The translations under genes and the position numbers were made by a program. A stretch of 62,571 nt of DNA, from assembly GCA_937912045.1 (NCBI GenBank), contig CALDPI010000235.1, forward strand, positions 1 to 62,571, read 5' to 3'. The notes under the pieces were generated by a model. That model saw nothing but the letters and a program-made list of their open reading frames with translations, was not told the DNA's origin and did not search any database. Source of the stretch: an uncultured Clostridia bacterium. GTDB lineage: Bacteria; Bacillota; Clostridia; Oscillospirales; Acutalibacteraceae. The first letter of the stretch is position 1. The number at the start of each line of letters is the position of its first letter. Of this stretch, positions 17,147-43,634 are shown piece after piece.

Positions 17147-17179
17147 TAAAAAAGGTTTAGGCGGGCTGCGCCTAAACCT
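17147..17179 (-). terminator. Rho-independent terminator
   Basis: Minus strand has aggtttaggc..gcctaaacct (10-bp stem) followed by TTTTTT. Confidence 0.75.
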
Positions 17180-19475: not shown

Positions 19476-19514
19476 AATATCACCTGTTTCTTTGCGGTAA
19501 ATTCGCTTTATAAA

Positions 19515-19542
19515 TATGTGACAGGGCGTATGCCCTGTCACA
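19515..19542 (-). other. Perfect 12-bp hairpin just downstream of the SBP gene
   Basis: atgtgacagggc-gtat-gccctgtcacat. On the minus strand it is followed by ATTTAT, so it could be an attenuator or an mRNA-stabilising 3' structure. Confidence 0.6.
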
Positions 19543-19556
19543 TACTTAAATGTTGC

Positions 19557-20978
19557 TTATTTAAAGCTGAAAGATTTCTTTTCTTTCTCGTAATCTCTGA
19601 TTGCACCGTCAACAACTGTTGTCCAGGATTTGATGGAGTTCTCCAAGCTCTTTGAAGGGTCGCTGAGCTCAGCATAGAGGGTCCAAACCTGATTGCCGAT
19701 AATGTCGGGTTCAACCGAGAAGTAGGTTTTGCCTGTAACAGCCTTCTTCCAGCGCTCTACCCACGCTTTGTTAGACTGTGAAATAGCCTTCATATTTGCC
19801 TGATAATATGCTCTCCAGTTGACAAGTGAATAGCCCAATTCAGGGTTCTTTGCCTTGCGCGGAACAATACCGAGTTGAACACCTATGGGCTGGTAGCTTG
19901 TTCCACCTGTGTATGACGGGAAGGGAACCCAATCCCATTCAAACTTGGCGTTCTTCCAGCTTTCATACTTGTCAACACGAACAGGGTACTGATCGTAAAC
20001 ATACATTGCAATATTGCCACCCGTCCAAGAGCCCTGGTCCTTGGTCATATAGTTGTTTTTGTTCAGTTTCTTAACGAATTCGTAAGAATCCTTCATTTCC
20101 TTGCTGTTTATTGTGTTTGTGAAGTTGCCGTTGTTAGGTTTAATAACAGAAGCACCTGCGGAAAGCGAGAATGCACCGTAACCGTCATACTTTGCACCCC
20201 ACTGAGTAACATTGCCGCTCTTGTCCTTAACGGTCAAAGCCTCTGCAAGCTCATAGAATGCATCCCAGGTCCACTTGCCCTCGTTATAGTAATCAAGCGG
20301 GGTCTTCTTAACCTTTGTAGAGCTTCCGAAAATCTTCTTATTGAAATATACAAATTTGGTACCGCCCCAAAAATGGTCGGTTATGCCGTAGTATTCGCCG
20401 TTGTACTTGCAGGCGTCCATAAGGTTATATGCAAGCCAGGTGTCCTTGCTCTTATCGATATACTTTGTAAGGGGCTGTGCCAATCTCTTGGTGATAAAGG
20501 ACGGGAAATAGTTGTTGGCATCGAACATTGTTGCATCAGGAGCGTCGTTTGCGGCAATAAGCGCAGTCAGCTTCTGGAACATAAGGGTTGCATCTGCAAC
20601 AGGAATGTATTTGATTTTTGCACCTGTCTGCTTCTCATACTCATCGTAAATCTGCTTCTCCCACGGTTCCGGCGTGTACCAAAGCAACAGCTTTACGGTC
20701 TTGCCCGAATAGTCAACGTCGAAACGGCCTGCCGTTTCCTTGTTGTCAACAACGTTACCGGGCTGGGTTACCTTGCTGGAGGTATCCTTTTTGGACGTTG
20801 TGTCCTTTTTGGAGGAAGCGTCCTTGTCGGTATCGGTATCTTCCTTGCTTACCGTTTCGGTAATGAAAGACTCAACATAGTATTCGCTTCCGTCCTCTCC
20901 GCCTGTGGTGATTGAGCAGGCTGTGAGGCCCAGCACCATCAAAAGACAGAGAACCAAAGAAAGAGTTCTTTTTAACAT
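19557..20978 (-). CDS. ABC transporter sugar-binding lipoprotein (family 1 SBP)
   Basis: Lipobox LGLTAC. A Ser/Thr/Asp/Lys-rich linker is followed by an SBP_bac_1-like body. AAAGGAGA SD. Confidence 0.9.
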   Translation of the reverse strand: MLKRTLSLVLCLLMVLGLTACSITTGGEDGSEYYVESFITETVSKEDTDTDKDASSKKDTTSKKDTSSKVTQPGNVVDNKETAGRFDVDYSGKTVKLLLWYTPEPWEKQIYDEYEKQTGAKIKYIPVADATLMFQKLTALIAANDAPDATMFDANNYFPSFITKRLAQPLTKYIDKSKDTWLAYNLMDACKYNGEYYGITDHFWGGTKFVYFNKKIFGSSTKVKKTPLDYYNEGKWTWDAFYELAEALTVKDKSGNVTQWGAKYDGYGAFSLSAGASVIKPNNGNFTNTINSKEMKDSYEFVKKLNKNNYMTKDQGSWTGGNIAMYVYDQYPVRVDKYESWKNAKFEWDWVPFPSYTGGTSYQPIGVQLGIVPRKAKNPELGYSLVNWRAYYQANMKAISQSNKAWVERWKKAVTGKTYFSVEPDIIGNQVWTLYAELSDPSKSLENSIKSWTTVVDGAIRDYEKEKKSFSFK

Positions 20979-21011: not shown

Positions 21012-21887
21012 CTATCCGACCAGGCCGGAGTGTTCAATACCCTGAATGAAGTATTTCTGCAGTGCCGCGTACATAACTATCATCGGCGTGAGGAAGAGCA
21101 TAACACCCGCCATAAGTTGATTTCTTATGGTGGCAATGCCCGTTGATGCCTGTGAAAGCGTCGATTTCAAGGTTGATAGCAGGGTTGAAAGCGGCGACAG
21201 TTCATCGAAGAACATTGTCGGGATGAGGGTTTCGTTCCAGTACCACACGATTGAAAGTATGGCAACAACCAGGAATGAAACCGCCGACGACGGAACAACA
21301 ATCTTCCAATAGGTCTTAAAGGTGCCGCAGCCGTCGATATATGCTGCTTCTTCAAGCTCTTTGGGCAGGTTTTTAACAAACTGCCTGAATATGTATATCA
21401 TAAGTCCTGAACGGACGCCCTGACCCAAAACCGCAGGCAAGAAATACGTAAAGACCGAATCAAGCAGTCCCATACCCTTAAATATTGCATACTGCTGTAC
21501 TATAAGCATCTGCGGCGGTACGATGATTGTAACAATTACAAGGAAAAACAGGAGGTTTTGTCCGCGGAATTTAAACCTTGCAAGTCCGTACGCTGCCAAG
21601 GAGCAACTGAATATTTGGAAAAGCACGCTCATACATACGAGGAAGACGGTGAACAAGAAGTTAGTTCCGTACTCCATTGTGTTCCAAACTGTAACATAGT
21701 TGCTGAAGGTCACCATCTTTGGCACCCACACGACCGAGGGGTCCAGAAGCTGGTCGTTTGTCATAAGACTTGTGCTTACAGCGTAGATAACCGGGAACAA
21801 AATAATATAAATTATTCCGATTAAGAATGCCCAGCGCACAATGCTTGCCAAAACGGAGCGAACTATATTTGCTGTTTTATTATTCAA
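21012..21887 (-). CDS. Carbohydrate ABC transporter permease
   Basis: 6 TM. The EAA loop LPKELEEAAYIDGCGTFKTYWKIVVP is present. Confidence 0.92.
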   Translation of the reverse strand: MNNKTANIVRSVLASIVRWAFLIGIIYIILFPVIYAVSTSLMTNDQLLDPSVVWVPKMVTFSNYVTVWNTMEYGTNFLFTVFLVCMSVLFQIFSCSLAAYGLARFKFRGQNLLFFLVIVTIIVPPQMLIVQQYAIFKGMGLLDSVFTYFLPAVLGQGVRSGLMIYIFRQFVKNLPKELEEAAYIDGCGTFKTYWKIVVPSSAVSFLVVAILSIVWYWNETLIPTMFFDELSPLSTLLSTLKSTLSQASTGIATIRNQLMAGVMLFLTPMIVMYAALQKYFIQGIEHSGLVG

Positions 21888-21899
21888 TTTGTTCCCTCC

Positions 21900-22841
21900 C
21901 TACATTGCTGCGCGCTTAAGCGGTTTTCTGAATATGAACAGGATTGCACCGATAACGACACCCAAAATTACGAAATAGCTCCACATTATTGCAGATGATT
22001 TGTTATAGTTGCTTTCCTGAATCAAGGTGTATGCCTGTTGCATAACCTGGTTGTTATTGGACGTGAACAGGTCGATACAGGTGTATACAACGTTGAGTAC
22101 GATAACGTTTGCCATCATCGGAACGGTGACGTACCAAAAGGTTTCCCAGCCTGTTGCACCCTCGACCTTTGCAACCTCATAATACTGTGCCGAAATGGAC
22201 TGCAGACCTGCAAGGAACAGAATCGTCTGCACGCCCGAGCTCCACACAAGGTTGAAGATGGACGAAATGTACTCATTAAGCTGTTTGACCAGTGCTGCAG
22301 GAAGACCTACGTTTTCCAGCATTGTGGAAAAACTGAAGGAATTGTAAAGTCCGCCGCTCGAACCACCGCCCGACTCGAGAAGTGCCTGCGCGTTGGAGTC
22401 GCCGTTTAAATAGGTGAGCACAACGCCGCTGGCAATTATAACGGGCAGGAAGAATATTGCTCTGACTATAAGTCTGCCACGGAAATTCTGATTAAGAACG
22501 ATTGCGAACACAAAGCTCAAAAACAGAATGATGGGCAAAGAATAGAAAAAGTCAACAATCGAGTCAAAAAGGTTGGTGGTGAATTTTGTATCCACCGTCC
22601 AGATTTCCTTAAAAAATTCTATTCCCGAGAAACGAGTGGCAAAATAATTTATAATCGTTCCATCATGTTCGTCAAGTGGGTTTGCGTTTGAAAAGGCGTA
22701 CCAGATTGACTGCAGCGCGGGATATAAGAAGAATACAAGAAAGCCCACAACCCACGGGATTGTAAACACGAAGCCCTGACGGGCGCGGCGCTTCTCCATC
22801 GAGGCGGGGAGTTTTGATTTGCTGAATATTGTGTTTTTCAT
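21900..22841 (-). CDS. Sugar ABC transporter permease
   Basis: Polytopic, with the loop ISAQYYEVAKVEGATGWETFWYVTVP. Confidence 0.92.
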   Translation of the reverse strand: MKNTIFSKSKLPASMEKRRARQGFVFTIPWVVGFLVFFLYPALQSIWYAFSNANPLDEHDGTIINYFATRFSGIEFFKEIWTVDTKFTTNLFDSIVDFFYSLPIILFLSFVFAIVLNQNFRGRLIVRAIFFLPVIIASGVVLTYLNGDSNAQALLESGGGSSGGLYNSFSFSTMLENVGLPAALVKQLNEYISSIFNLVWSSGVQTILFLAGLQSISAQYYEVAKVEGATGWETFWYVTVPMMANVIVLNVVYTCIDLFTSNNNQVMQQAYTLIQESNYNKSSAIMWSYFVILGVVIGAILFIFRKPLKRAAM

Positions 22842-22854
22842 ATAAACCTACTCC

Positions 22855-25062
22855 CTATCTCTTAATTATAAAGTCGTTTGCGCCGACACTGACGTTATCA
22901 GAATTATAGTCGACCTCACCACAGTTAATGGTGATTTCCACTCCATTGCTGAAGGTTGTTTTATAAACGTCGTCTGCGAGGACCGAGAAGCCGCTTATCG
23001 TTGCGCCCTGCGTTGCCTCGATAGCTTCTTTACCTCTTGCGACTGTTTTTGCCAAGGTTCCCTTGCGGTCAGAATAGCTGCCTGCCGCAAGTGAATCGAA
23101 TATGGATGCCGAATACTCGCTGGTTTCTGTGCCGCAAACGGTGAAGCAAAGGCCCGAACCGAGTGCCACAGAACGCAGGAATTCATCTGCTTCATTATCC
23201 GACAAGGTGAGCGATGCACCCGACATTGCCTTATAGCCCTTAAATACTATATGGTAGAAGGGCAGCCATTCGTCCTCAACCGAGAAGCCACTGCTGTTTG
23301 TGGGCGAATTAATAATATAATCCGCGCTTACTGCGGCAAAGCTGTTTGCAGAGTCGAGCATAAGCTCTGTACCGTTTTTGCTCAGTACACCTGTTGCTTT
23401 TGTAACGTTTTCCGCAAACTGAAGGGCAACGTAGTTTTCTTCCCTACGATAATCACCATAGCAAATGTTACCGAGTGTGCTGAGCGATACGCCGCCCCAA
23501 CCACTCTTGCTTATGGTTTTCTCAAGCTTTTCTGCCGCTTCCTTAAAGAAATTGGGTGCGAGCAGATAATACTCGTATGCGTTTTTCATAGTTCCGCCCG
23601 TAGAAACCGAGTAGAAATACTGTGACGCCTTAAGCGAGGTTGTTGAGGTTGCTGCGTCGGTATTAACCTTAAATCCGTTAGACGATTTTGTGAAACGGAC
23701 AAGGTCAAAATCGGGGAAAAGCTTTGCGCCGTTTTCTTCTGCGGTGTTAATAAGTGCAGAAATCGCCTTTTTATTACCAAGCTTGCCCTCAGTTTTAAAG
23801 CCGCCTGCAATCTTTGTGGCATCAAGTCCGCCGTTTTGAACACCGGTGAGTCTTACAGCCAATGAAGCGCCTGTTTGCTTTGCCACGTCAGCCACAATTT
23901 CTGCCGCCTGTGCATATGTGGTAATGGGCTTTATAACCTTTTTGGGAATACCAAAGAAGAATTCGCGCTTTGAGGCAGCCATTGGCAAATCAAGATAGAC
24001 TGTGCTTTCTTTTTCTGCCTTTTCGAGTCCTTTTTCTTCTATAAGATATTCTCTATAAACGTCAGCCGTCTTGAAGAAATCTGTATCTGCGCCGTCCAAA
24101 ATCATTATGCGCTGACCAATTTCACCCGTTGCTGCGTTTTTGCTGAACTGGTTACCTATCATAACGCTGCCCCAGCCCTGCGGCAGAGCGATTGCCTCTG
24201 CGCCGCGAATGGCAAAGGTGGTGTATGCATAGGAGAAGCCAAGGTCCAAATCACCTGCGGTGGCGACGATTTCTGCACATTCCTCACCCCTGTCGATGAT
24301 TGTGCAATAGGTCTGCTCCGCATCACTTACCGCATACACGGGAAGCTTGACATCCTCTGTATCGGTAAATCTGTACTGTGTGGTCGAGGCTTTATCCTCG
24401 CCGTATACATAACCCTTATAGGTGCGCATGGCACGGTCTGTATCACAGTACATTACCATACCGCTGCCGTCGGGCATAAACATCTCGTTTTCTTTTTTGT
24501 TCTCAACCGATGAGGCATAAGGCAGAACCGAGATTTTATAAATCTGGTGCTGGCTTTCATATATGCTGTCAAGGTCAATTTTTACATCGAGATATCCGTT
24601 AATCAAACGGTATTCAACCGGAATTGCCACGCACTGCTCGTCAAAGCAGTAAAGCAATCTGATGCCGTTTTCTATTTTATATGAATATGTTCTTCCGTAT
24701 TCATATGCACCTGTGTAGGAGGTGACGGTGTTAAGACCCTTGTCATTTATGCCCTTGCTCTCGATTATGAGCGTGGACTCGAGGTAGCTTTTAACGCCGC
24801 CCTCATACAAATTGCCGAGGTACTGCTCTTTCGGCATACTTGACCATACAAGCGTGTCGCCCTTATATATAAGCAACGCCATACGGTCGGCATCCCAATC
24901 GAGTCTGAGTTCACCGTCCTGTGCGACGGTGCCGCTCGCGGCATAGTTTTCGGTGGTTTTAACGGGTTTGCCCTCTGCATTTTCAGTTACAATGCCGCAA
25001 CCCGATAAGACTGTAATTAGCTGAATCAGACAAAGAATCAGACATATTAATTTTTTTCGCAT
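22855..25062 (-). CDS. Large lipoprotein of unknown function (DUF5696-like by recollection)
   Basis: Lipobox VLSGCG and AGGAGG SD. 735 aa with no motif I can assign. The DUF5696 label comes from memory of similar loci and is unverified. Confidence 0.55.
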   Translation of the reverse strand: MRKKLICLILCLIQLITVLSGCGIVTENAEGKPVKTTENYAASGTVAQDGELRLDWDADRMALLIYKGDTLVWSSMPKEQYLGNLYEGGVKSYLESTLIIESKGINDKGLNTVTSYTGAYEYGRTYSYKIENGIRLLYCFDEQCVAIPVEYRLINGYLDVKIDLDSIYESQHQIYKISVLPYASSVENKKENEMFMPDGSGMVMYCDTDRAMRTYKGYVYGEDKASTTQYRFTDTEDVKLPVYAVSDAEQTYCTIIDRGEECAEIVATAGDLDLGFSYAYTTFAIRGAEAIALPQGWGSVMIGNQFSKNAATGEIGQRIMILDGADTDFFKTADVYREYLIEEKGLEKAEKESTVYLDLPMAASKREFFFGIPKKVIKPITTYAQAAEIVADVAKQTGASLAVRLTGVQNGGLDATKIAGGFKTEGKLGNKKAISALINTAEENGAKLFPDFDLVRFTKSSNGFKVNTDAATSTTSLKASQYFYSVSTGGTMKNAYEYYLLAPNFFKEAAEKLEKTISKSGWGGVSLSTLGNICYGDYRREENYVALQFAENVTKATGVLSKNGTELMLDSANSFAAVSADYIINSPTNSSGFSVEDEWLPFYHIVFKGYKAMSGASLTLSDNEADEFLRSVALGSGLCFTVCGTETSEYSASIFDSLAAGSYSDRKGTLAKTVARGKEAIEATQGATISGFSVLADDVYKTTFSNGVEITINCGEVDYNSDNVSVGANDFIIKR

Positions 25063-25078
25063 CTTTGACCTCCTGCAG

Positions 25079-27193
25079 CTAATTATTTCTATAAACTACT
25101 TCGTTATAAACCGAGCGAATAAACTCTATAACATCCTGGAAAAGTGTGAGCACAAGCAAAATGAGGAATGCGCAAAGAATCATTCCCACGATTGTGACCA
25201 GACTCATTCCGAGTGCACGGAAGAAGCTGTAATCGTGTATGATTGTGAGCTCTACAAGCAACACCACAATGGTGATTAACCAGCAGATTGCCTGTGCGCC
25301 TGAGAGAATCGCCTGCTCGCTATATACAAGAACGTGCGATGCTACAATGAAGAATGCGCTGTATATAATCTGCGGAATGAGGGCAAAGCCCGTTACAATC
25401 ACAATCTCCTTAAAGGTACCCTTGCCTTCAAACAGGGTGCAAAGGCCCCAGTTTACAACACACCACAAGGCTGCAATTCCGACCGTGGTGATAAACACCA
25501 TTGCCGAATTGTACTTGTCGGGGTCGAAGTTTGTATACATGAATCCGCCCCAGGTGGTTTCAAGCACCTTGCCGATGAACATAAGCAGCATTATGCCAAC
25601 GGATATCAGCACGTAAATATTAAGCTGCTTGGATTTCTGCTTGCGAAGTGCCCTCATTTTAAGCGAGGTCTGAATCGGACGCCAGGGTGCCAAAAGCGCC
25701 GTCATGGCGATGCCGGGCTCACGCTTTTCACGCGGGTGCTTCTTGCGCCAGATGAGATATGCAATTATTCCTGCAACCGCCAGAATTGCAACAATAAAGA
25801 TAATTGCAAAGTTATCGGCAAGCAGATTAAGTCTTACCTGCTCAAACGCACGCTCGTAAATGTCACGCTCGTAACCGAGTTCTGCATATTTGAGGGCGTT
25901 TTCATAATCCTCAACCGCGATATAATAGTTGGCTATACCAACGTACGCCATCTGGTTGTAGCCGTCCTGCTCCTTAACCTGAAGCCAGAGCGGATATGCG
26001 CCTTCAAAATCGCCGTCCTCTGTTTTTGCCATTGCCGAAAACAGAAGCTCACCAAAATCTGTAAGGCCGAAGACCGTAACGCTGTTGGTGGTTGAGTCAA
26101 CAACAAGCACTTCCTGTCCGTTAATGGCAATTTCTGCGGCATTCTGGAAGGTGCCGACCTGCTCGCCCAAGCCCTTGCCGCCGCCAAATGCTGTAACAAG
26201 GTTGCAGGTTTCATCATAGACAAAAACTCTGCCATAGGTCGAATCAAGTCCGTATATATAGCCGTTGTCATCAACCGCGATAGCAACAAAATGCTCGGTT
26301 GCGGAATGCTTATCAATAAGTGTTATGGATTCACCGTTGCCGAAGGCAAAGTTATCAGCCGATTCACCGTCGCGGTTAAGAATGTTTATTCCCGAATAGC
26401 TGAGCTTTCTAAGCTGACCCTTGCCACTTTCGGAGTTTGCCGTTGCGGTATAAATAAAGCCGCCTTTTTCATAAATATCGTCAAACTCATATGGAAGCTC
26501 ACGCAGAGAATATTCATACTGCGCATCGGTTTTAAGTGTATTAACAAAGAAATTCTTTATTGCATCAAGCACCGTTGCAGAGGTCAGGTTTGCGCCGAAA
26601 AAGCCGCAAAACTCATACTTAGAATTAAATACGAGCGCGCCATAAATACCACCCTCACAGAGAACAAATATAAATCCGTCCTCATCCTCTACTACCTTTG
26701 TCGGCTTAAACTCCATATCATCGGGAACGATGGCCGAATCGGGCTTTGTTATTATCTTGCTGACTGTGCCCGCGGCATTTATAACGACAACATACTCATT
26801 GGTGCTGTCGGCTATGTATATCGTACCTTCAGCTGTGACAAAAAGTCCGTTTGCACTTGAAAGGTCAAGTGCCTCTTCCCCGTTTGCAATATGGTCGATA
26901 ACGCGAATAAATTTATAGTTCTTATCAAGCACGACAATGCGGGAATTTCCGCTGTCAAGCAGGTAGATATAGTCGCCGCAAACGCATATATCGTTTATTG
27001 CGTTGAATGCGCCTATGCCTAAATCCTGTCCTTCTAAATATAGCTTGCTTGCAAAGACATCCTTCTGCTGTACGAGAACGGTCTTACCCTGACCGTTTCT
27101 CTCCTGAAATGATGCAGCGCTTGCGCTGAAGCCCGCTGTCATAATGAGGACGGTCAGAGTGATGCAAACTATCGTTTTAAATAATTTTTTCAT
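25079..27193 (-). CDS. NHL-repeat beta-propeller / TPR / Yip1-domain multi-pass membrane fusion protein
   Basis: Signal peptide, then repeated NHL-like blades (YIYLLDSGNSRIVVLD, TIYIADSTNEYVVVIN, YIYGLDSTYGRVFVYD, VLVVDSTTNSVTVFG). A TPR-like helix pair and one TM follow. The C-terminal ~230 aa has 5 TM and is Yip1-like. Confidence 0.7.
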   Translation of the reverse strand: MKKLFKTIVCITLTVLIMTAGFSASAASFQERNGQGKTVLVQQKDVFASKLYLEGQDLGIGAFNAINDICVCGDYIYLLDSGNSRIVVLDKNYKFIRVIDHIANGEEALDLSSANGLFVTAEGTIYIADSTNEYVVVINAAGTVSKIITKPDSAIVPDDMEFKPTKVVEDEDGFIFVLCEGGIYGALVFNSKYEFCGFFGANLTSATVLDAIKNFFVNTLKTDAQYEYSLRELPYEFDDIYEKGGFIYTATANSESGKGQLRKLSYSGINILNRDGESADNFAFGNGESITLIDKHSATEHFVAIAVDDNGYIYGLDSTYGRVFVYDETCNLVTAFGGGKGLGEQVGTFQNAAEIAINGQEVLVVDSTTNSVTVFGLTDFGELLFSAMAKTEDGDFEGAYPLWLQVKEQDGYNQMAYVGIANYYIAVEDYENALKYAELGYERDIYERAFEQVRLNLLADNFAIIFIVAILAVAGIIAYLIWRKKHPREKREPGIAMTALLAPWRPIQTSLKMRALRKQKSKQLNIYVLISVGIMLLMFIGKVLETTWGGFMYTNFDPDKYNSAMVFITTVGIAALWCVVNWGLCTLFEGKGTFKEIVIVTGFALIPQIIYSAFFIVASHVLVYSEQAILSGAQAICWLITIVVLLVELTIIHDYSFFRALGMSLVTIVGMILCAFLILLVLTLFQDVIEFIRSVYNEVVYRNN

Positions 27194-27206
27194 TTACAAG
27201 ACTCTC

Positions 27207-28067
27207 CTATCCCTTAATGCCCGAGCTGCTCATTGTCTTGGTAACACTCGACTGAGAAATGAGATAAACAGTTGTCGGGAACAGAAGCATTATAACCGAT
27301 GCCGCCATTGTACTGCCCTGACGGGTAATACCAGCGGAAGAAATCTGCTCTATAATATTGGGAAGCAACTTTATGTCCTCGTCGAAAATCATTGAAGACG
27401 AGCTCGTTGCCCATAAATCTCTGAACGCGAACAAAACGAGTGTCAGCACGGCAGGACGAATAAGCGGCAGTGCAATCTTGAAATAGATTGTGAAGCAGTT
27501 TGCGCCGTCGATTTTAGCTGCCTCCATCAAAACGTCGGGAATACTGCTGTCCATATACTGTTTAAGCAGGAAAACACCGAGTGTTGACGGTATGTAGGGC
27601 AAAATATATACGAGATAAGTGTTAAGAATCTTAAGCTCTGACATAATTACATACTGCGGAATTGCAAGTGTGTAGGTATTGAAAAGCAGAGCCATCTGAA
27701 CGAGTGCAAAAATGAGTGTATATGCCTTGTGGTGATATTTTGAAAGCGTAAATGCCGCCATGGAGGCAACAAAGACGTGCAGCATTGTCGTAACAACGCT
27801 GACGAAAACGCTGTTGATGATATATCTTGAAAACGGAACCCACTCGGTCGATAACAACTGCGGTAACGCCAGATAGTTTTCAACTGTTGGCGACACAACG
27901 TAAAACTTTGGTGGGAATGCCATGATTTCATCCAAAGGCTTTAATGATGTAACAATAAGATATACAAGCGGCAAAAGCATGAATGCGCCGAACACCGTCA
28001 AAAATATTGCAATGACTGCGGTGCCGAACTTTGAACGCGTATATCTTTTTACCTGATTACGTGCCAT
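27207..28067 (-). CDS. Carbohydrate ABC transporter permease
   Basis: Polytopic, with the EAA loop IPDVLMEAAKIDGANCFTIYFKIALP. Confidence 0.92.
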   Translation of the reverse strand: MARNQVKRYTRSKFGTAVIAIFLTVFGAFMLLPLVYLIVTSLKPLDEIMAFPPKFYVVSPTVENYLALPQLLSTEWVPFSRYIINSVFVSVVTTMLHVFVASMAAFTLSKYHHKAYTLIFALVQMALLFNTYTLAIPQYVIMSELKILNTYLVYILPYIPSTLGVFLLKQYMDSSIPDVLMEAAKIDGANCFTIYFKIALPLIRPAVLTLVLFAFRDLWATSSSSMIFDEDIKLLPNIIEQISSAGITRQGSTMAASVIMLLFPTTVYLISQSSVTKTMSSSGIKG

Positions 28068-28102
28068 AAGTGTTAAACCTTTCCCTTCAATTAATCCAAT
28101 TA

Positions 28103-29005
28103 CTATTTATCAAGCGTATTAAGCAGTTTTCCTATTACATATCTTGTAATTGCCATAAGGGCAAACAGGAAGACCGCTATTGCCGAGGCATAACCCATTT
28201 CGTACCTGACAGTACCGTAGTCTGCCATATGGGTAACGATGGTGTGGGTTATATAGTTAGTACTCGGATTACCGGTAAGGGCTGTTGCAACAGAACTGAC
28301 AGAGAATGCCGCCTGAATCTGCATAACAGCAGAGAAAAGCAGTATGCTCTTCATCGAGGGCAGGGTTATATACCAAACCTCCTGCCAACGATTGCGGATA
28401 CCCTCAATCGCGCCAACCTCGTAAAGCTCGCTTCCGACATTCTGAAGACCCGAAATGTTGGCAAGGAACGAGGTTCCCATACTCATCCACAACTGGACTA
28501 TCATAACAATCGGCAGTGCATAGGCCTCTTCCTTGAGCCAAATAATCGGCTCGGTTATGAAGCCATACTCAAGCAGGAAACCGTTTATGAGACCATAGCT
28601 GTCGCCGCTGAATATAAACAGCCAGATGAAATACACGTTTCCGACAAGCGCGGGCGAATAGAAAACGAAGGAAACAACCGCTCTTGCAACGCGCGGAAGC
28701 TCGTTTATGAACCACGCAAGCAGGAAAGCAAACGCGTATCCGAGAGGACCTGTTATAACAGCGAAAATAAGGGTGTTTTTGAGTGCGATTTTAAAAATAT
28801 CATCGTACAAAAACAGTCTTATGTAGTTCTGCACACCGTTAAACGTCGGCAGATTGAGCATATCAAAGGTTGTAAAGCTCAGCACCACCGATGAAAGAAT
28901 CGGCAAAACGGTGAACAGGAAAAACAGCGCCAAAAAGGGCGTTAAAAGTAACGTAGGCTGAAGAAAGCTTTCGCTTCTGTAGCGTTTTTTAAGTTTCGAT
29001 TTCAC
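28103..29005 (-). CDS. Sugar ABC transporter permease
   Basis: Polytopic, with the loop VGSELYEVGAIEGIRNRWQEVWYITLP. Confidence 0.92.
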   Translation of the reverse strand: MKSKLKKRYRSESFLQPTLLLTPFLALFFLFTVLPILSSVVLSFTTFDMLNLPTFNGVQNYIRLFLYDDIFKIALKNTLIFAVITGPLGYAFAFLLAWFINELPRVARAVVSFVFYSPALVGNVYFIWLFIFSGDSYGLINGFLLEYGFITEPIIWLKEEAYALPIVMIVQLWMSMGTSFLANISGLQNVGSELYEVGAIEGIRNRWQEVWYITLPSMKSILLFSAVMQIQAAFSVSSVATALTGNPSTNYITHTIVTHMADYGTVRYEMGYASAIAVFLFALMAITRYVIGKLLNTLDK

Positions 29006-29017
29006 TTGCTTTCCCTC

Positions 29018-31825
29018 CTACTTATTTACGGAATATTCTTTGCTCTTTCTTTCCATTTCTTCATCTATCATAAGCGCCCACTTGGTAAGAGCATCCTTGG
29101 GTGCTTCGCCATCACTGTAAACGGCATAAAATGCGTTTTCGAGTGAACGAGTTACATAGTAGCTTCCCGGAACCTCGGGTATAAATTCTGCGAGTTTATA
29201 CTGCTCAAGTATAACCTTTGCGTCGTCTCTGCTCCAAGACAGCTGCTGCAGAGCGTTTACGTTTGCTGTGGGCACACGTGCGGCAATACCAACAATCGAC
29301 TCAACGTCCGAGCTGTATCTGTACTGAACGTCGGCGCTGGTCCACCATTTGAGGAACTCCCACGCCTCTTTGGGCGAGTCGGTATCCTTGAGTATTACCG
29401 TCGCGGTCGAGGTGCCGATTGTCTTGTTGTTAAGACCGTCCTTACCTTCAAAGCCCGGAAGCTGATGCACGCTCCAACGGCCGCTGATTTCGGGTGCCGC
29501 CGCCATAAGCGTAGCATAGGTTGTGTAAGGCTCAATGCCCAGCGGCATTTCACCCGTACGGAAACGGTTGTAAAGGCTGAAAGCTACGGGCAGCTTGTAT
29601 TCAACGTACAAATCCGTATAGAAGTTAAATGCATCAAACGCCTCTGCGGTATCAAGGTTGGTTCTTGAAAGGTCGTCCGTATAGAGTGTTCCGCTCTTCT
29701 GATAAAGGAAGGTTCTATAGTTCTGCGGAACGCCCACAGAAAGATTATTTCTCATAAGCACCGCGCAGCAACGCAAAAACTCGTCCCACGTTTTCGGCAC
29801 AGAAATTTCAAACTGTTCAAAAATATCGTCTCTGACGTACATCATATTAAAGGTGATGCTGTCGGCAAGGCCGTAAACGCCACCCTTATATCTGAATGGG
29901 TTGATGGGCTTATCGCTGCCGTAGTTTGCTTGCAGTGTTTCTTCAAAATCCTCAAACTGTGACAAATCATAAAGTGCTCCACGCATTGCAAGGTTAACGG
30001 GTGTGTCATTGCTCTGCATAATGGTGCAGTCAGGCGCATTGCCCGAAAGCTTTGCCTGAATTATTGATGCTGCAGCAATTTTTATGTTGACCTTTATGCC
30101 TGTTTTGGGTGTAAAGCTATCCTCGACCATTTTCTGAAGAACTCTTGACTGGTCGCGGCCGATGTTTACCCAAACGTCGATAACACCCTCGCCCTCTGCC
30201 GTGGAAAGTGAGTTATAGTCAACAATATATGAGGCAAGAAGCTTGTTAAAGCCGAAGACAAATCTTTCAATAAAGTTGGACTTGTACTGCTTGGCGTCAA
30301 CGCTTTCTCCACCTATTATTATCTTTTCAATGTCGAGCGGCATCTTGCGCATTTCGTAAATCCATGCGCCTGCACTACTGTAGTTATTGAAAAGGTCACT
30401 TACGTATTTATGTGCCTTGAACTTCGATTCCAGCATACGCTCGAGAACGAGTGCAAGACTTTCAAGGGTGACGGCATTAGAGCCGCCCTTTGCGCCGGTA
30501 ATGGCGTTATATTCTTTAACCAAACCGTCGATTTCCTCGATATAGCTCTTAAGGTCATCATTAAGAGTAGGAATTTGGTCGTAAAGACGGTAGTCGCGGT
30601 TGGCATCGGGGGTGGTACCCGTAATCATAATTATCTGGCGATACATTTCGCCTACATTATATATAAGTGTCTCAAGTCTGCGGCTGATATCCGCAACGGA
30701 GCCTAAGGTAGCCTTAAGAGAAATGGTGTGCGGACCCTCTTTGAGATAGACATAATAGGGGGTCTCGCCGCCAAAGGTGAGAAGGTTCCACTTGGTGCTG
30801 TAGGGGAACTTGATTTCACTTGCCTCTGCAAACGGGGTTTCCCCGTCTATTTGCAGACTTCTGATTGCACTGGCATTGGTAAGATAACCCTGCTTATATT
30901 TGAAGGTTATGCTATAATATGCATCCTTTGGCGCATTGAATTCCCAGGTGATTCTCTCGCCTGCGGCATCCCAGTTGCTGCCGCCGATGCAGTTAATTGA
31001 GGTGTGGTATGCGCTTGACGGATTGAGCGACGGGTCTGTGCCGTCTGCCAGGGGACGAAGCTCCTTAGAGCTTTTATCTTTTGCCTCCTGCGCTTCAATT
31101 ACAACGTCGGCTCCGTCATAAATGTCTGATGCGTCTTCGGCTGAATACGCGGGGGTCTTCACAGCGCCCGAAAGTGTGATGGATTCAAGCGCAATTGTGC
31201 CCGAATAAAGCTCGATTGTGATGGTGTTTGCACCTTTTGCGAATGCGAACTTAAGCGGCTCTAAATAAAGCTCGTCGGGGTCAATCAGCTTTTCTGACAC
31301 CCATTTTGGCAGCTGTATCTGAGTGGGGCTGGACTGATTTCCGAGGGCATCCTCTGTGGGCTTTCCTTCGTCAACCCAAACGCGCGGCAGGAACATGCTG
31401 TCTGCCTCCGCGAAGGGCTCTGTGCCGTTGATTTTGCAGGAAAGCTCTATTTTTGATTCGCTGTTGTCAACAGCGGCATAGTTAAGTGCGATGTTGTAAA
31501 GCGCAGCTGTCTCACAATTAACGTTAAAGGAAACAGGGCCGCTTTCTGAATCTATAATAAGGACGTTGTCCTTATCGCAATATGAACCAAGCTTTGCGCT
31601 TGAGCCCTCTGTGGCAACGAAACCTGACGCATCTATTTTCATAGATGCGCCGGTATAATCGTTTTTGCCTTCGAGGTAATCGATGTATCCGCTGCCGGCT
31701 GTAGCGGCGGCAGCGGTTGGATTGATGTCAGACACCGTGTCAGCAGAGCATATGACCTGCGAAAACAGTGTTGTTATCAAAGATATAATTAAAACTGTGC
31801 AAGTGAACTTTGAAACGTATTTCAA
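29018..31825 (-). CDS. Oversized extracellular solute-binding protein (N-terminal ~520-aa CBM-like/helical extension + family-1 SBP body)
   Basis: The track ORF starts at 31840 (TTG). That TTG lies inside a GGGAGG sequence which sits 7 nt before the TTG at 31825, so 31825 is the more likely start. N-terminal signal/TM. The C-terminal ~400 aa are SBP-like (IDVWVNIGRDQSRVLQKMVEDSFTPKTGIKVNI...). Confidence 0.78.
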   Translation of the reverse strand: MKYVSKFTCTVLIISLITTLFSQVICSADTVSDINPTAAAATAGSGYIDYLEGKNDYTGASMKIDASGFVATEGSSAKLGSYCDKDNVLIIDSESGPVSFNVNCETAALYNIALNYAAVDNSESKIELSCKINGTEPFAEADSMFLPRVWVDEGKPTEDALGNQSSPTQIQLPKWVSEKLIDPDELYLEPLKFAFAKGANTITIELYSGTIALESITLSGAVKTPAYSAEDASDIYDGADVVIEAQEAKDKSSKELRPLADGTDPSLNPSSAYHTSINCIGGSNWDAAGERITWEFNAPKDAYYSITFKYKQGYLTNASAIRSLQIDGETPFAEASEIKFPYSTKWNLLTFGGETPYYVYLKEGPHTISLKATLGSVADISRRLETLIYNVGEMYRQIIMITGTTPDANRDYRLYDQIPTLNDDLKSYIEEIDGLVKEYNAITGAKGGSNAVTLESLALVLERMLESKFKAHKYVSDLFNNYSSAGAWIYEMRKMPLDIEKIIIGGESVDAKQYKSNFIERFVFGFNKLLASYIVDYNSLSTAEGEGVIDVWVNIGRDQSRVLQKMVEDSFTPKTGIKVNIKIAAASIIQAKLSGNAPDCTIMQSNDTPVNLAMRGALYDLSQFEDFEETLQANYGSDKPINPFRYKGGVYGLADSITFNMMYVRDDIFEQFEISVPKTWDEFLRCCAVLMRNNLSVGVPQNYRTFLYQKSGTLYTDDLSRTNLDTAEAFDAFNFYTDLYVEYKLPVAFSLYNRFRTGEMPLGIEPYTTYATLMAAAPEISGRWSVHQLPGFEGKDGLNNKTIGTSTATVILKDTDSPKEAWEFLKWWTSADVQYRYSSDVESIVGIAARVPTANVNALQQLSWSRDDAKVILEQYKLAEFIPEVPGSYYVTRSLENAFYAVYSDGEAPKDALTKWALMIDEEMERKSKEYSVNK

Positions 31826-31875
31826 AATTATACCTCCCAAATTAAGTGCCTGACATCAATAAAACTCATTTTGCT

Positions 31876-34800
31876 TTACTGAGCAGTTTGTTCTTTTTTC
31901 CTTTTCTTCTTCACAAGGAAGATGATAAGGAAGGTGATTGCGGCGAGTACAACAACCGCAAGGGCAATCATCAAAATGATGAACCAGGTTGCAAGTCGAA
32001 CAGGGGTGCCCTTCTTCTTGTACTTCTGTACAACCTTCTTGGTTGTTTCCTCGGTTTCGTCGTCGTCATCGTCGTCAGAATCGGTGTCATCTACGTAGTC
32101 GTCATCCGAATCGGTGTCTTCAACGACGTCGTCCTTCTTTTCTTCCTCGTCCTTCTGGAGGCCGTCTGTTCCAAGAACAGTATCAGCGAAGGTGAGGCCG
32201 CCCTTAGGCATATCCTCTGCAAGAGTGAGAGCATAACCGTTTTCTGCTTCGAAAAGACGGAACTTATCGAATACGGCTTCACCGTCCTTATCGTACATTG
32301 CGAAGGAAACTTCACTTTCCGCATAAGTCTTGAAGCTGATGGAAACAAGAGTCCATTCACCGCGGTTTATAGAAACATCCTGCGGGGTGCTGATGAACGC
32401 GCGCGGATTCTTGAGTGAAACAATACCGAACTTCGCGCTTTCGCCGTTGAGAGTTCTGTACCAGAACGAGAATGTGTATGACTTGTTAGCCTCAAGCTTA
32501 ACGGTGGGAAGGAAGTAATAACCCCAATTTGAGCCCTTATAGTGAAGCATCTTGTTGCCTTCACTGGTTACAACCTCGACAAATTTGCCCATACCGTTGA
32601 AGTCCTTCCAGAACTCTGTTCCCTTATCGAACATACCGTTCTTAATCAGGTTGTCAGATTCGTCGCAGGCAAATTTTGCTTCGTCGTAGTTGTAGGTGTC
32701 AATATCGGTGATGTTTACGCTTTCCTTCGCAGGCTTAGCGTCGGCGGTTTCGAAAATCTTGATATCGTCGAAGTACATTTCGCCCTTGATGCCCTGGATA
32801 AAGAAGTAAACCTCTGTGTTATCCTCGGTATTGAACTGATATGTACGGTTGTACCAAGTACCGTCGGGATACTTAATAGTGATTTCCTGCTTGGACGAGC
32901 CATCGCGTGTCCATTCGCTTGTTTCATAAGTCGACTTCGGATTTTCGAAAGGAAGCAGGTTCATATCCATAATACCGAAATGAACGTGCGGAACGACTGT
33001 ATCCGAATAGCCCATGCCGTAAAGGCTTAAATAATAGGTGGTGTTGGGCTTAACAGTTATTTTCTTAACGAAAAGGCCCTGGCCGCTTACCTTAAGCGAA
33101 GTGTTGCCATCATATTTTTCCTCTGTTGTGATGGTTGCAAAGCCTGTGGAATCTGCCCAGTAGGTTGCATTATCACAAGCAGCGTTTGTAATGAGGTTCT
33201 TTGCGGGGTCGCAAATTTGGTTTGCAAATTCTCTTCTGAGACCGAAGCCCGAAGGTGCAAAGCCTCTGTTAATTTTGTCATTTCTGACATAATCCAGATA
33301 GTACTTAGCGCAGAGCGAAACGTAGGTTTCGTTCTTGGTTGCGGTACTGAGAACAGGACTTACGAGTCCGCGCCACATATCATATTTTGAATCATAAACG
33401 CCATCCGCGCCGAATACCTTTGCAGCAACGTCTACAATCGCCGAGTTGAGAACGCCGATTCTGTAGCTGTCGATAACCGCAGCAGCCGCTGCGACGTCGT
33501 CGGGTAATGCGTGGATTGTAAGACCGTCAACGTAGATTGCCTTTCCTGCGGAAAGCACGCTTGTATCAAACTCGATAAAGTTTGCATAGTCGCCTGCGTT
33601 GATAATGGCAGTAACCTTGGTCCAGCCGTTATTATTAGCAGCCGTCTTAATGGTGCGTGTCGATACGCCGTTGCTTACGAGGTCGGCGGTTACCTTGTCT
33701 GCCGACTGGAAGCCTGCGGTCTTAACCCAGTATGTGACGAGATAGTAGTTACCATAGGAAACTGCAGGCAATGTAATCTTGCCGTTCTGTGCAGTAACCT
33801 CAAACACCTTAGAGCCGTACTTTGCAGAAGAATTTGCGGTGCCGCTCTGCTCGAACGAGCCGTCAGTTGCAAGGTTGCCTTCAAGGCCAAACTCATATCC
33901 GTCAACGGCGGGTGTTGTGGCGGCGGTGGTCTTCTTGTAAAGAATCTTGCCTGCCTCAAGGCACTCTGCGCCATATGCAGACTCAAGCTTGTAAACGGCA
34001 ATATCGTCTACATAGCCCTTTGTCTGAGAGTATAAGCTGAGGTTAGGCTCAGAGAAGGTGGAAGCACCTGTGTAGATGAGCATGGTTACTCTCTGCCAGG
34101 AGTTCTTGCTGCCGAATATGCCGTATCTTATGTTAAGGTTTGCGCCTGTTGAGGACTGGAAGCGCATTTCTGCATCGTTTCCTTCAACCTTAATCCAGAA
34201 GGTAACAGCATAGTAGGAGCTGGGCTCCATCTTGGGTAGCGGTATGCAGTAGTTTTGAACTTCGCTGCCCGGCAGTACGATAGCACCCGAGCCGTCGTTT
34301 GTGTGCGAAACCGTGGTATCATTACTCAAAATTCCGCGTGCCTTGGGGCTGAACCACATATTCGGCTTGGTAGCACCTGCATTAAACTGCTGATACTTGT
34401 TAACCGCCTTGCCCCAAATTGCGTTTGCGTTTGCAACGCCGGAGCCTGTGGTTTCGTTCTGATAATATGCCTTATAGGTGCCGTCTGGGTTAAATTCCTT
34501 AACCGTCGGGTCGGGAACAAGGTTGGTTCCGAGTGTAGACCAATCTAAATCAGAATAGTCATAAATTGTTTCGCCCTTGGTTGCGTTCTTATAAACGGCA
34601 ACAAACTCGGGGTCAACAGGCGGGTCAGGCTCCTTAGCGGGTGCCTGTGTCGGGTCAACGCCGTCAGCAACCAGCTTGCCTGCGGTGAGGCACTGGAGTG
34701 CATACTCATCATTTGTCAGCTTGTAAACAGCAACATCGTCAACAAAGCCAACAGAGTTGTTGTAAATTTCGATGAACGGGTCTGCATGTGTCTTGTCAGC

Positions 34801-42960: not shown

Positions 42961-43634
42961 TCTTCCTCCTTTAAAAGAATTTTTGCCGAAAATATCACAA
43001 TCATATTATAATACGCGTACATTATGTAAGTCTTCTCATTTTATAGCAAATCACTCTCAAAAATCATTATTTACTAACTTTTTTACACTTTTTTACCATT
43101 TTTTTGCCGTTTTTTTCTTTGGATGCAGTTTTGCGATTGACACTTCTTCTAAAAACCAGCGGCATATTTTCAAATTCATTCGTCATTTTCACAACGTTTT
43201 TGTCCCATTTTTCCTTCGGATTTGTGTTTTTTGGGATTGTTTTCACTAAAACAGACATTTTCTCGCACAACATATTGTGTTTTTGGATAAAATACACCAC
43301 AAAAATGTGGTTTTTATGTACATATAGTATATATAATATCGGCGTTCTCATCCTGATTTTTTCGAATTCACTGACGGTGCGTGTTGGTAAAATTTTTATC
43401 TCAAAAAACACGAAAATAATTGTTTTTTGCATTGCTTTTTTACTTTATAGATGTTACAATTACCATAAAGACACATATTTTTTATTACATTTGTTACAAC
43501 TTTTTATCAAGCAATTATTTTAAAAACAAACTTTTTTAAATAATTGTGTGGTTATTTTCTATAGAGTTTAGACCCATTTAGTGTTATTATTATTTTATCA
43601 ACCGTTGTTCCCCTATTATGAAAGGAGAAGCAAA

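Follow-up and report, generated by a model that had tools for sequence, protein, structure and literature searches.

A conserved seven-gene module combining two CUT1-type permease pairs with a Yip1 membrane protein and a GH129-related DUF5696 lipoprotein in monoderm bacteria

Seven genes form a conserved unit in the DNA analysed here and in related loci of other genomes. They encode a giant secreted solute-binding protein (SBP-L), a first permease pair (pA/pB), a membrane protein with NHL, TPR and Yip1 parts, a DUF5696 lipoprotein and a second permease pair (pA2/pB2). The reading that fits best, to which we assign a probability of roughly 0.5, is that of a surface complex with the Yip1 protein as its scaffold, which would capture, trim and import a carbohydrate in monoderm bacteria.

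Accounts of how Gram-positive gut bacteria take up glycans usually speak of an ABC transporter with nearby enzymes, and they define no core comparable to the SusC/D of Bacteroidota. The seven-gene module is undescribed in the literature that we found. Searches for DUF5696, for PF18952, for Yip1 together with solute-binding proteins (SBPs) and glycoside hydrolases, and for SBPs with carbohydrate-binding module (CBM) extensions returned no description of it, and a 2026 review of bacterial glycoside transporters makes no mention of 'accessory', 'DUF', 'CBM' or 'additional domain'.

Organization of the locus

The window, i.e. the whole stretch of 62.5 kb of DNA that was analysed, contains the seven genes together with an optional SBP gene downstream and a large gene upstream:

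31876–37413, minus strand: surface protein of 1845 amino acids with a CBM4_9 domain (Pfam CBM_4_9, E 2e-14) and a C-terminal transmembrane tail; context only, outside the conserved core
29018–31825, minus strand: SBP-L, secreted solute-binding protein of 935 amino acids (ORF as listed, 29018–31840)
28103–29005, minus strand: pA, MalF/UgpA-like permease of translocator 1, 300 amino acids; BPD_transp_1 (Pfam)
27207–28067, minus strand: pB, MalG/UgpE-like permease of translocator 1, 286 amino acids; BPD_transp_1 (Pfam)
25079–27193, minus strand: NHL/TPR/Yip1 protein of 704 amino acids; Pfam Yip1 and NHL
22855–25062, minus strand: DUF5696 lipoprotein of 735 amino acids; lipobox LSGC; Pfam DUF5696
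21900–22841, minus strand: pA2, MalF-like permease of translocator 2, 313 amino acids; BPD_transp_1
21012–21887, minus strand: pB2, MalG-like permease of translocator 2, 291 amino acids; BPD_transp_1 (E 6e-17)
19557–20978, minus strand: optional lipoprotein SBP of 473 amino acids; SBP_bac_1; lipobox LTAC

The ORF listing confirms that the region 22855–31825 holds five tightly packed, co-directional genes, as had been noted in the first-pass annotation; all are on the minus strand, with gaps of 12, 35, 13 and 16 nt. Comparably short gaps of 13, 12 and 33 nt lead from the DUF5696 gene through pA2 and pB2 to the gene for the 473-residue SBP. Translation of SBP-L starts at a TTG codon at position 31825, 7 nt after the ribosome-binding site GGGAGG, which gives the product of 935 amino acids. 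Scans for consensus promoters and terminators did not yield an operon map that could be used within the cassette.

The module is part of an array of co-directional genes that extends over about 38 kb and also comprises GH78, GH106-like, GH5, GH3 and GH2 genes as well as genes for esterases and AraC regulators. The gene for the 1845-residue surface protein lies directly upstream of the SBP-L gene, and its product is paralogous to that of an ORF of 922 codons at 38170–40938. Homologues of this surface protein precede SBP-L in only four of the related loci described below (L002, L003, L004 and L007).

Conservation of the module

Synteny was assessed in the top 80 related loci of other genomes, which were found by a genome scan with a closer set of DUF5696 sequences, and each component was counted only in those loci whose flank reached far enough to show the neighbour in question. 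Under this rule the Yip1 protein is present in 73 of 73 loci, pA and pB in 71 of 71 each, SBP-L in 67 of 67, pA2 in 74 of 74 and pB2 in 64 of 70. By contrast, an SBP gene follows pB2 in 34 of 59 loci, which makes the trailing 473-residue SBP an optional component. The median intergenic gaps across related modules are 3–14 nt. Because the arrangement recurs in 80 loci of other genomes whose lipoprotein is mostly 26–32% identical to that of the window, the shared gene order is, by this comparison, far beyond chance.

These counts change the outline of the locus. It had been described as a five-gene cassette followed by a separate 'second, ordinary importer', whereas the conserved unit has seven genes: the permease pair of the supposed second importer is as fixed in position as the rest, and only the 473-residue SBP is optional. 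The statement in the first-pass annotation that genes annotated as Yip1 and DUF5696 recur beside importers has been borne out as an obligate linkage, both in the 80 loci and in eleven further contexts, namely around eight distant DUF5696 proteins (21–27% identity; 714–1243 amino acids) and around three Yip1 variants. The accessory role suggested for these two genes has thus decisively withstood the gene-neighbourhood comparison, in which conserved synteny with importers was found.

The seven proteins have also diverged in parallel. Their distance matrices are congruent (r 0.86–0.95), and the highest values belong to the three extracytoplasmic proteins (SBP-L/Yip1 0.95, SBP-L/DUF5696 0.94, Yip1/DUF5696 0.94). 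The NHL/TPR and Yip1 parts can be fused, as in the window, whereas in L099, L104, L106 and L107 they are encoded by split, adjacent and overlapping genes (about 480–500 and about 205 amino acids, respectively). Clustered at 50% identity, the DUF5696 family as a whole falls into more than 4000 clusters, and at least 506 of its loci lie in genomes that serve as species representatives.

Taken together, these observations bear on the view that the locus consists of two independent, ordinary CUT1 importers with unrelated genes in between, a frozen accident of operon history that involves no physical complex. Such independence would be compatible with the complete EAA motifs of each permease pair, so that each could work alone, and with the fact that each pair has its own SBP in the window. 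It is, however, difficult to reconcile with a gene order that is invariant across so large a family, with the congruent divergence of all seven proteins, with the occurrence of the NHL and Yip1 genes in both fused and split form, and with an anchorless SBP-L that in a monoderm cell needs a partner. We consider two unconnected importers very improbable.

The large solute-binding protein SBP-L

Across the module SBP-L has a size of about 950 amino acids. Its Pfam SBP domain (SBP_bac_8/SBP_bac_1) is confined to residues 567–845, in keeping with the initial estimate of an SBP of about twice the normal size, and a search of PDB sequences returned sugar SBPs over residues 548–911, which delimits a CUT1-type SBP domain of about that extent. 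The N-terminal extension of some 510–550 amino acids is likewise conserved and consists of two weak CBM6/35-like beta-sandwiches and a helical region. Residues 291–390 match the CBM35 of a CITase in the PDB sequence search (E 2.8e-5), and Pfam gives a weak CBM_35 match. Since the profile of the extension matched CBM6/35 families only, and these at a sub-significant level, the CBM label is a tentative one.

SBP-L carries a cleavable type-I signal peptide and has neither a lipobox, a lipid anchor nor a transmembrane anchor; a lipobox-like motif occurs in only 6 of 67 homologues. A secreted protein of this kind in a monoderm bacterium would need a docking partner at the membrane.

Permeases, ATPase and genomic context

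All four permeases match PF00528 (BPD_transp_1), and an EAA-type motif can be read in the sequence of each. pA, with an EAA-like motif, has NCBIfam matches of the UgpA/PotB/MalF type, and pB matches GlcU/UgpE/MalG and contains the EAA motif 'MEAAKIDGA'. The corresponding motifs are 'YEVAKVEGA' (EAA-like) in pA2 and 'LEEAAYIDGCG' in pB2. The two pairs are not close relatives, with pA only 23% identical to pA2 and pB 26% identical to pB2. A cluster-B/family-1 SBP domain (SBP_bac_1/8) is present in both SBPs of the window, and the smaller one, which probably serves translocator 2, has a long tether rich in Ser, Thr, Asp and Lys behind its lipobox. An ORF with both Walker A and LSGGQ motifs, as expected of an ABC ATPase, was found neither in the 62.5-kb window nor in the 80 related 22-kb loci, and a MalK/MsmX-type ATPase is presumably encoded elsewhere.

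Among the module components pA is the most conserved (median identity 59%), pB has a median of 54%, and the SBP domain of SBP-L is about 45–50% identical across modules. For these three, conservation is unusually high when set against that of pA2/pB2 and the small SBP. Because this conservation exceeds what would be expected if each module served a different ligand, it hints at a common ligand or at a mechanical role of these parts.

The flanks of the modules are variable. Downstream neighbours include GH36, GH3, GH2 and GH16 genes, genes for beta-helix proteins and AraC regulators, and housekeeping genes; in the further contexts GH32/GH123, GH30, GH26 or GH130 genes occur. Three stand-alone modules (L097, L100 and L101) have housekeeping neighbours, no CAZyme genes and no second SBP, and copies of this type adjoin SUF, enolase, purine and threonine biosynthesis genes. 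With such neighbours, an interpretation of the module purely as part of polysaccharide loci fits poorly.

It could thus be argued that the module handles one common ligand, for example a cell-envelope or host-independent glycan that it recycles or senses, and that the variable SBP and the CAZymes are secondary acquisitions. Both the housekeeping surroundings of the stand-alone copies and the strong conservation of pA, pB and the SBP domain of SBP-L point in this direction. Several genomes, however, carry divergent paralogous modules (at least two in 8 of 72 assemblies, even when only the top 80 loci are counted), the CAZyme and AraC genes around most modules differ from case to case, and DUF5696 is the fastest-evolving component (median identity 29%), as expected for a diversifying specificity. 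A single shared ligand therefore appears improbable to us.

The NHL/TPR/Yip1 membrane protein

The Yip1 protein begins with a signal peptide, which is followed by an extracellular six-bladed NHL beta-propeller (residues 28–377), four TPR-like helices (379–440), a transmembrane helix at about 460–483, a cytoplasmic loop of low conservation and a Yip1 membrane domain of five helices (523–703). The Pfam Yip1 match covers residues 514–676 with 35.3 bits (cut-off 28.6), the NHL part is recognized by both Pfam and PDB matches, and TPR matches in Pfam were found in homologues. In the AlphaFold2 model (pLDDT 85.5) the helices of the Yip1 domain span residues 523–703 and are set apart from the transmembrane helix at about 460–483. 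Foldseek searches returned NHL propellers as top matches and otherwise generic propellers, and for the membrane domain they gave no match. Faint SGL matches raised the possibility that the propeller is a lactonase- or lyase-like enzyme; this was rejected on the ground that the conserved residues D80, D129, D317 and D366 are repeated structural residues of the NHL motif.

The DUF5696 lipoprotein

The lipoprotein matches DUF5696 (PF18952) over profile positions 7–612 of 612 with 422 bits (cut-off 25.6; E 5e-126). Its signal peptide ends MRKKLICLILCLIQLITVLSG-C22; the cysteine is invariant in the alignment of homologues, 68 of 78 of which have a lipobox. The AlphaFold2 model (pLDDT 88.7, pTM 0.88) consists of an N-terminal beta-sandwich, a (beta/alpha)8 barrel and a C-terminal beta-sandwich, an architecture known from the GH129-like fold. 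The closest structures in Foldseek are 5opq (E 4e-29), which is the GH129-like DagB of Zobellia (ZGAL_3152; also 8rzk, the Michaelis complex), and 5wzn (E 5e-24), which is the Bifidobacterium alpha-N-acetylgalactosaminidase NagBb of family GH129; they are followed by GH101, GH36 and GH31 structures. The TM scores for the model against 5opq and 5wzn are 0.59–0.71 over about 710–770 columns.

The same relatives emerged from profile searches. The DUF5696 profile matched 5opq (E 1.5e-9) and NagBb (1.6e-4) among PDB sequences, hhalign aligned DUF5696 with the DagB family (99.8%, E 2.6e-29), for which sequences were taken from a metagenome scan, and one protein of the DagB family itself exceeds the Pfam gathering threshold of DUF5696. 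The relationship is a distant one. Sequence identity to the GH129/DagB relatives is 12–16%, a single-sequence search against PDB sequences retrieved nothing, so that GH129 was revealed only by profile and fold searches, none of the 41 DUF5696 members scanned matched Pfam Glyco_hydro_129 at E<=1, and a sub-profile of residues 425–665 produced chance-level matches in the PDB. Judged by the modelled fold and the profile alignments, DUF5696 is a remote homologue of GH129 and GH129-like alpha-glycosidases and not a family of unknown fold. A lipoprotein that had been listed as having no established role in ABC import thereby gains a plausible one as a relative of alpha-glycosidases, and the earlier idea of a 'processing' function gains support from the glycosidase fold.

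Residues D223, D537 and N573 and the motifs PDGSG and PFY are near-invariant in DUF5696; among 289 sequences D537 is conserved in 280, D223 in 277 and N573 in 274. The nucleophile of NagBb, D435, corresponds to D486 of DagB. In the window protein D537 precedes the PFY motif by 64 residues, compared with 63 residues between DagB D486 and its PLF motif, and D570 precedes PFY by 31 residues, compared with 32 for DagB E517. However, hhalign places DagB D486 opposite the variable N532 and not opposite D537, in a nucleophile region that is aligned with low confidence. DagB E517 aligns with D570, and an acidic residue at position 570 or 571 is present in only about half of the 289 sequences; in this region N573 is invariant instead.

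Because the acid/base position is not conserved and the alignment of the nucleophile region is of low confidence, the lipoprotein could be non-catalytic. It would then be a dead glycosidase fold within the same assembly, a surface protein that binds or delivers glycans and replaces the SBP of translocator 2. The gene order lends this alternative some appeal: DUF5696 occupies the usual place of an SBP before a permease pair, such that DUF5696-pA2-pB2 mirrors SBP-L-pA-pB, and in the stand-alone modules, which have no second SBP, pA2/pB2 would otherwise be left without a dedicated binding protein. On the other hand, a conservation of 95–97% for D223, D537 and N573 over 289 very divergent sequences is typical of an active site, and we know of no type-I importer that uses a non-SBP fold as its receptor. 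The nearest characterized relatives of DUF5696, moreover, are all active glycosidases. DagB is a proven exo-alpha-1,3-(3,6-anhydro)-D-galactosidase although the acid/base residue of NagBb (E478) is not conserved in it (E517) (PMC5698469). We therefore regard a dead enzyme as rather unlikely.

Proposed mechanism

In the preferred reading of a scaffolded surface complex, an ATPase of the MsmX/MalK type, shared and encoded elsewhere in the genome, would power both translocators. SBP-L would catch the glycan and feed it to pA/pB while being held at the membrane by a partner. The Yip1 protein may provide the scaffold: on a base of six membrane helices, its NHL/TPR ectodomain would dock SBP-L and/or the lipoprotein, and its helix bundle would contact the permeases, for which YknW of Bacillus offers a precedent. 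The DUF5696 lipoprotein may be a membrane-tethered glycosidase, probably with alpha specificity, that works next to the translocators and shortens the captured glycan there; the trimmed products would enter via pA2/pB2, assisted by the optional lipoprotein SBP where it is present. Given that the flanking enzyme genes differ between loci, the module would be a core that is used again in different settings, with a role comparable to that of SusC/D.

It is tempting to speculate further that the module represents an unrecognised ABC 'utilisome' of monoderm bacteria (Clostridia and Paenibacillaceae), in which two coupled CUT1 translocators lie beneath an anchorless, CBM-bearing SBP-L and a GH129-like lipoprotein, both tethered by the Yip1/NHL/TPR scaffold. 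Such an obligate seven-gene machine would have been duplicated and retargeted thousands of times and would be the Gram-positive counterpart of the SusC/D core. We regard this extended reading as possible rather than probable.

Comparison with known systems

CUT1-family sugar importers of Firmicutes (TC 3.A.1.1), such as those of the MalEFG type, resemble the module in their BPD_transp_1 permease pairs with EAA motifs and in their family-1 SBP domains, and the lack of an ATPase gene in the operon is a frequent trait of those that depend on MsmX. The module differs from CUT1 importers in that two translocators are locked together, with two obligatory genes (NHL/TPR/Yip1 and DUF5696) between the pairs, and in that its first SBP is of unusual length, with a conserved N-terminal extension and no lipid anchor.

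With the GH129 and GH129-like enzymes DagB and NagBb, GH101 being the next neighbour, DUF5696 shares the three-domain architecture and the PFYQMV/PLFNLV motif. In contrast to these enzymes, the lipoprotein is lipid-anchored on the surface of a monoderm cell instead of being periplasmic or cytoplasmic, it is always found inside an ABC importer module, and its acid/base Glu is not conserved.

In the Sus-like systems and utilisomes of Bacteroidota, too, a transport core that can be reused is joined by a binding protein at the surface and by a lipid-anchored protein of glycosidase fold; these systems also occur in several paralogous copies per genome with variable CAZyme genes around them. The module, however, lacks a TonB-dependent transporter and a SusD fold, an outer membrane is absent as well, and import would proceed via ABC transporters; neither SusC TonB-dependent transporter nor SusD domains were detected among the window ORFs scanned. 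No component is homologous, and the likeness would be a purely functional analogy.

For the Yip1 protein, the nearest parallel is the YknWXYZ system of Bacillus, in which the Yip1-family membrane protein YknW modulates how the ABC complex of YknX and YknYZ is assembled (PMC4887032, citing Yamada 2012). The resemblance, drawn via the Pfam Yip1 domain, lies in a Yip1-domain membrane protein that is encoded with an ABC transporter and needed by it. YknYZ differs in being a MacB-type exporter, and YknW has no NHL/TPR ectodomain.

With its GH78, GH5, GH3, GH2, GH106-like, esterase and AraC gene neighbours, the module of the window resembles the gpPULs of Sheridan et al. 2016 (PMC5320581), which are loosely defined by the presence of a transporter, a regulator and CAZymes. 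By contrast, no fixed multi-gene core like the module described here is known for gpPULs, and not all copies of the module are situated within a locus of this type.

Being fixed and searchable, the module could serve as a signature by which glycan-utilisation loci in Oscillospirales, Lachnospiraceae and Paenibacillus can be found and delimited. A large domain of unknown function would acquire a probable activity class, that of a GH129-like alpha-glycosidase, and bacterial Yip1 proteins would acquire a testable role; if the utilisome reading is true, they could be general assembly scaffolds of ABC transporters. The module also raises the structural question of how an unanchored SBP works on a monoderm surface and why two translocators are coupled. 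It is carried by gut Clostridia and by Paenibacillus, and since cultured Paenibacillus species, for example Paenibacillus tundrae (CM128574.1, about 1.57–1.59 Mb), are among the carriers, it is open to experiment.

Conservation of the seven-gene module

The first-pass annotation had described a five-gene cassette at positions 22855-31825 and interpreted it as an accessory-equipped uptake or processing machine for a bulky glycan. ORF calls and Pfam matches bear out its genes, coordinates and packing, the five genes being separated by 12-35 nt within a long, co-directional minus-strand array that runs through the window. That interpretation is supported in part: the association of accessory genes with an importer is real and, as judged by conserved synteny, stronger than had been supposed, but the boundaries of the unit were drawn too narrowly, since it comprises seven genes, at times followed by an eighth:

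29018-31840, minus strand: large solute-binding protein (SBP-L), 935 aa from its real start, a TTG at 31825 that follows a GGGAGG site by 7 nt
28103-29005, minus strand: pA, BPD_transp_1 permease
27207-28067, minus strand: pB, BPD_transp_1 permease
25079-27193, minus strand: NHL/TPR/Yip1 protein (Yip1 protein), 704 aa, Pfam Yip1 at 35.3 bits (cut-off 28.6) plus NHL matches
22855-25062, minus strand: DUF5696 protein, 735 aa, end-to-end Pfam DUF5696 match (E 5e-126), lipobox LSG-C22 at its start
21900-22841, minus strand: pA2, of a second permease pair downstream of the DUF5696 gene
21012-21887, minus strand: pB2, of the same pair
19557-20978, minus strand: small lipoprotein SBP, 473 aa, downstream of the second permease pair

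Searching a single genome per GTDB species for a DUF5696 motif yielded 506 loci encoding a relative, and the best 80 were taken with 10-kb flanks. These stem mostly from gut MAGs of Acutalibacteraceae and other Oscillospirales, with some Lachnospiraceae, Emergencia and Clostridiaceae and a Paenibacillus. ORFs called in the 80 loci were matched to the window proteins by phmmer. This gene-neighbourhood check upheld the proposed co-occurrence of the 735-aa and 704-aa genes with SBP and permease genes, order and strand being kept wherever the flanks sufficed: the Yip1 protein was found in 73/73 such loci, pB and pA each in 71/71, a large SBP (over 850 aa) in 67/67, pA2 in 74/74 and pB2 in 64/70. 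Median intergenic gaps in the related loci are 3-14 nt. The gene order must be ancient because the DUF5696 proteins of nearly all loci that keep it are only 26-32% identical to that of the window (exceptions among the 80 are loci L001 with 78% and L002 with 45%). By contrast, an SBP follows pB2 in just 34/59 loci, two rounds of HMM iteration included, and is thus optional.

At the far edges of the family, each of eight distantly related DUF5696 proteins (21-27% identity, 714-1243 aa) and each of three Yip1 variants of 479-1092 aa is encoded in this module too, in one of the 11 cases up to a contig end. Among 1.84 billion cluster representatives searched by profile, 4083 DUF5696 clusters reached E<=1e-30, implying thousands of module variants. 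Two copies occur in 8 of 72 assemblies, counting the top 80 loci alone. Distance matrices of all seven proteins are congruent (r 0.86-0.95), the tightest correlations being those among the three extracytoplasmic proteins, although longer proteins give less noisy distances.

The DUF5696 lipoprotein

The lipoprotein of the cassette is probably an enzyme, and DUF5696 is likely to be a glycosidase family. In a confident AF2 model (pLDDT 88.7, pTM 0.88), a (beta/alpha)8 barrel stands between an N-terminal and a C-terminal beta-sandwich. The top Foldseek hit in the PDB was 5opq, the GH129-like protein DagB of Zobellia (E 4e-29); GH129 NagBb came second (5wzn, 5e-24, TM 0.61/0.71), and GH101, GH36 and GH31 followed. 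Sequence shows the kinship as well: three collinear stretches of 5opq match the family profile (E 1.5e-9), as does NagBb (1.6e-4), and hhalign aligned DUF5696 with ten DagB-family sequences from marine metagenomes over 628 columns at 99.8% probability. One homologue of Zobellia DagB from a marine metagenome (L082:2155-4248) scores 30.3 bits with DUF5696, above the Pfam gathering threshold of 25.6, versus 14.8 bits, below threshold, with Glyco_hydro_129. Thus, one peripheral member of this "domain of unknown function" is already characterised and crystallised.

DagB is by experiment an exo-alpha-1,3-(3,6-anhydro)-D-galactosidase whose activity needs D202, D486, E517 and E531 (PMC5698469). Near-invariant among 289 DUF5696 sequences are D537 (97%), D223 (96%), N573 (95%) and the PDGSG and PFY motifs. 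D537 may correspond to DagB D486: by manual count from the hhalign alignment it lies 64 residues from PFY, compared with 63 between D486 and PLF in DagB. Alignment confidence from hhalign is low around D537, which AF2 puts in a loop ten residues past a strand. The position matching E517 is D570, and an acid at 570 or 571 is found in only about half of the 289 sequences. The protein might instead be non-catalytic and serve the second translocator as its binding protein, which we regard as unlikely. A lipobox is present in 68/78 DUF5696 homologues; the small SBP is likewise a lipoprotein.

SBP-L, the Yip1 protein and the translocators

The SBP domain of SBP-L is confined to residues ~548-911. 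All homologues carry the N-terminal extension. From ~280 onward it is as strongly conserved as the SBP domain; two places in it weakly resemble CBM35/CBM6, and a helical segment comes after them. A lipobox-like motif is lacking in 61/67 homologues, the N-termini inspected being type-I signal peptides with an AxA-type cleavage site, and the window protein sequence has no C-terminal anchor. Being unanchored on a monoderm surface, SBP-L must be held by something.

In the AF2 model of the Yip1 protein (pLDDT 85.5), a signal peptide leads into a six-bladed NHL propeller (28-377) and four TPR-like helices (379-440); after a TM helix (~460-483) come a basic, poorly conserved cytoplasmic loop and a five-helix Yip1 bundle (523-703). 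Foldseek matched only NHL propellers. In four lineages an NHL/TPR gene (~480-500 aa) and a ~205-aa Yip1 gene that overlaps it take the place of the single gene. In Paenibacillus tundrae (L104; CM128574.1, 1570494-1591933), where the module adjoins a GH30 gene, separate genes encode NHL/TPR (479 aa) and Yip1 (207 aa) proteins; as a cultured organism with a complete genome it offers a tractable model. The Bacillus Yip1 protein YknW has a role in organising an ABC complex (PMC4887032). This role, together with the invariant gene order, the fusion and splitting of NHL and Yip1 and the anchorless SBP-L, argues for one assembly, and we consider it very unlikely that the genes serve independent functions and are merely adjacent.

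All four permeases have EAA-type motifs. Across modules pA (59%) and pB (54%) are conserved far above pA2 (40%), pB2 (37%), SBP-L (37%), the Yip1 protein (34%), DUF5696 (29%) and the small SBP (26%). An ABC ATPase was found neither in the window nor in the 80 related loci. We propose that the Yip1 protein may serve as a scaffold that keeps both SBP-L and the GH129-like lipoprotein above a pair of CUT1 translocators, for which a distal ATPase of the MsmX/MalK type would supply the energy.

The component kinds (CUT1 ABC importers, GH129-like fold, NHL/TPR repeats, Yip1) are already known. In the literature searched, no description was found of the fixed arrangement of seven genes, of the giant SBP without an anchor or of the obligatory Yip1 partner, and there is a substantial, though less than even, chance that the module represents a truly new type of uptake machine built from several proteins. 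The SusC/D analogy drawn earlier would be one of function only; the module is not a Sus system, as it has neither a SusC/D pair nor homology to one.

Flanking genes

Flanks vary by locus and include GH36 with AraC regulators, GH3, GH2, GH16 and beta-helix proteins, GH32/GH123, GH30, and GH26 or GH130; those in the window encode GH78, a GH106-like protein, GH5, GH3, GH2, SGNH or alpha/beta-hydrolase esterases and AraC regulators. Such variation is consistent with a reusable core for capture, trimming and import, a reading to which we assign a probability of roughly one half. Three copies of the module (L097/L098, L100, L101) stand amid housekeeping genes (SUF, enolase, purine, threonine or pyruvate-oxidoreductase) with no CAZyme cluster nearby and no second SBP; in these copies both SBP-L (1059-1169 aa) and the DUF5696 protein (996-1243 aa) are enlarged. 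These stand-alone copies and the high conservation of pA/pB and SBP-L would suit a machine for a common ligand, used in envelope recycling or sensing, which seems rather improbable to us.

About 25 minus-strand genes with tiny gaps (~4699-42960) encode GH5, the module, two GH78 proteins, alpha/beta-hydrolase and SGNH esterases and oxidoreductases, and an AraC gene (43581-44456, plus strand) diverges from them. The arrangement is suggestive of a single, very large locus for a rhamnose-related glycan, its regulator being divergent. The sole clear hairpin in the scanned 17-37 kb (17153-17179) lies within a 133-nt gap after a 326-aa ORF (17188-18168) that resembles residues 1455-1721 of a 1845-aa protein (31876-37413, minus). 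The latter, encoded upstream of the cassette, is a paralogue of a 922-aa protein (38170-40938, minus), with which it shares 31% identity over 720 aa; the two also align at several offsets, a sign of internal repeats. No catalytic domain is recognisable in either, and the 1845-aa protein has CBM4_9 and a C-terminal TM tail. A 457-aa ORF (18168-19541, minus) without Pfam/NCBIfam match shares 30% identity over 440 aa with the protein at 40966-42960 (GH5+CBM4_9) and is, by sequence, probably a cryptic GH5-like enzyme. Outside the main array, near AraC regulators, are a 1024-aa protein (57800-60874, minus) with a weak GH106 (alpha-L-rhamnosidase) match and a 543-aa MGH1-like/GH63-like protein (48118-49749, plus). 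At the window edge (3110-4674, plus), genes for a HAAS-domain protein and a DUF4097 "toastrack" protein form an unrelated two-gene unit.
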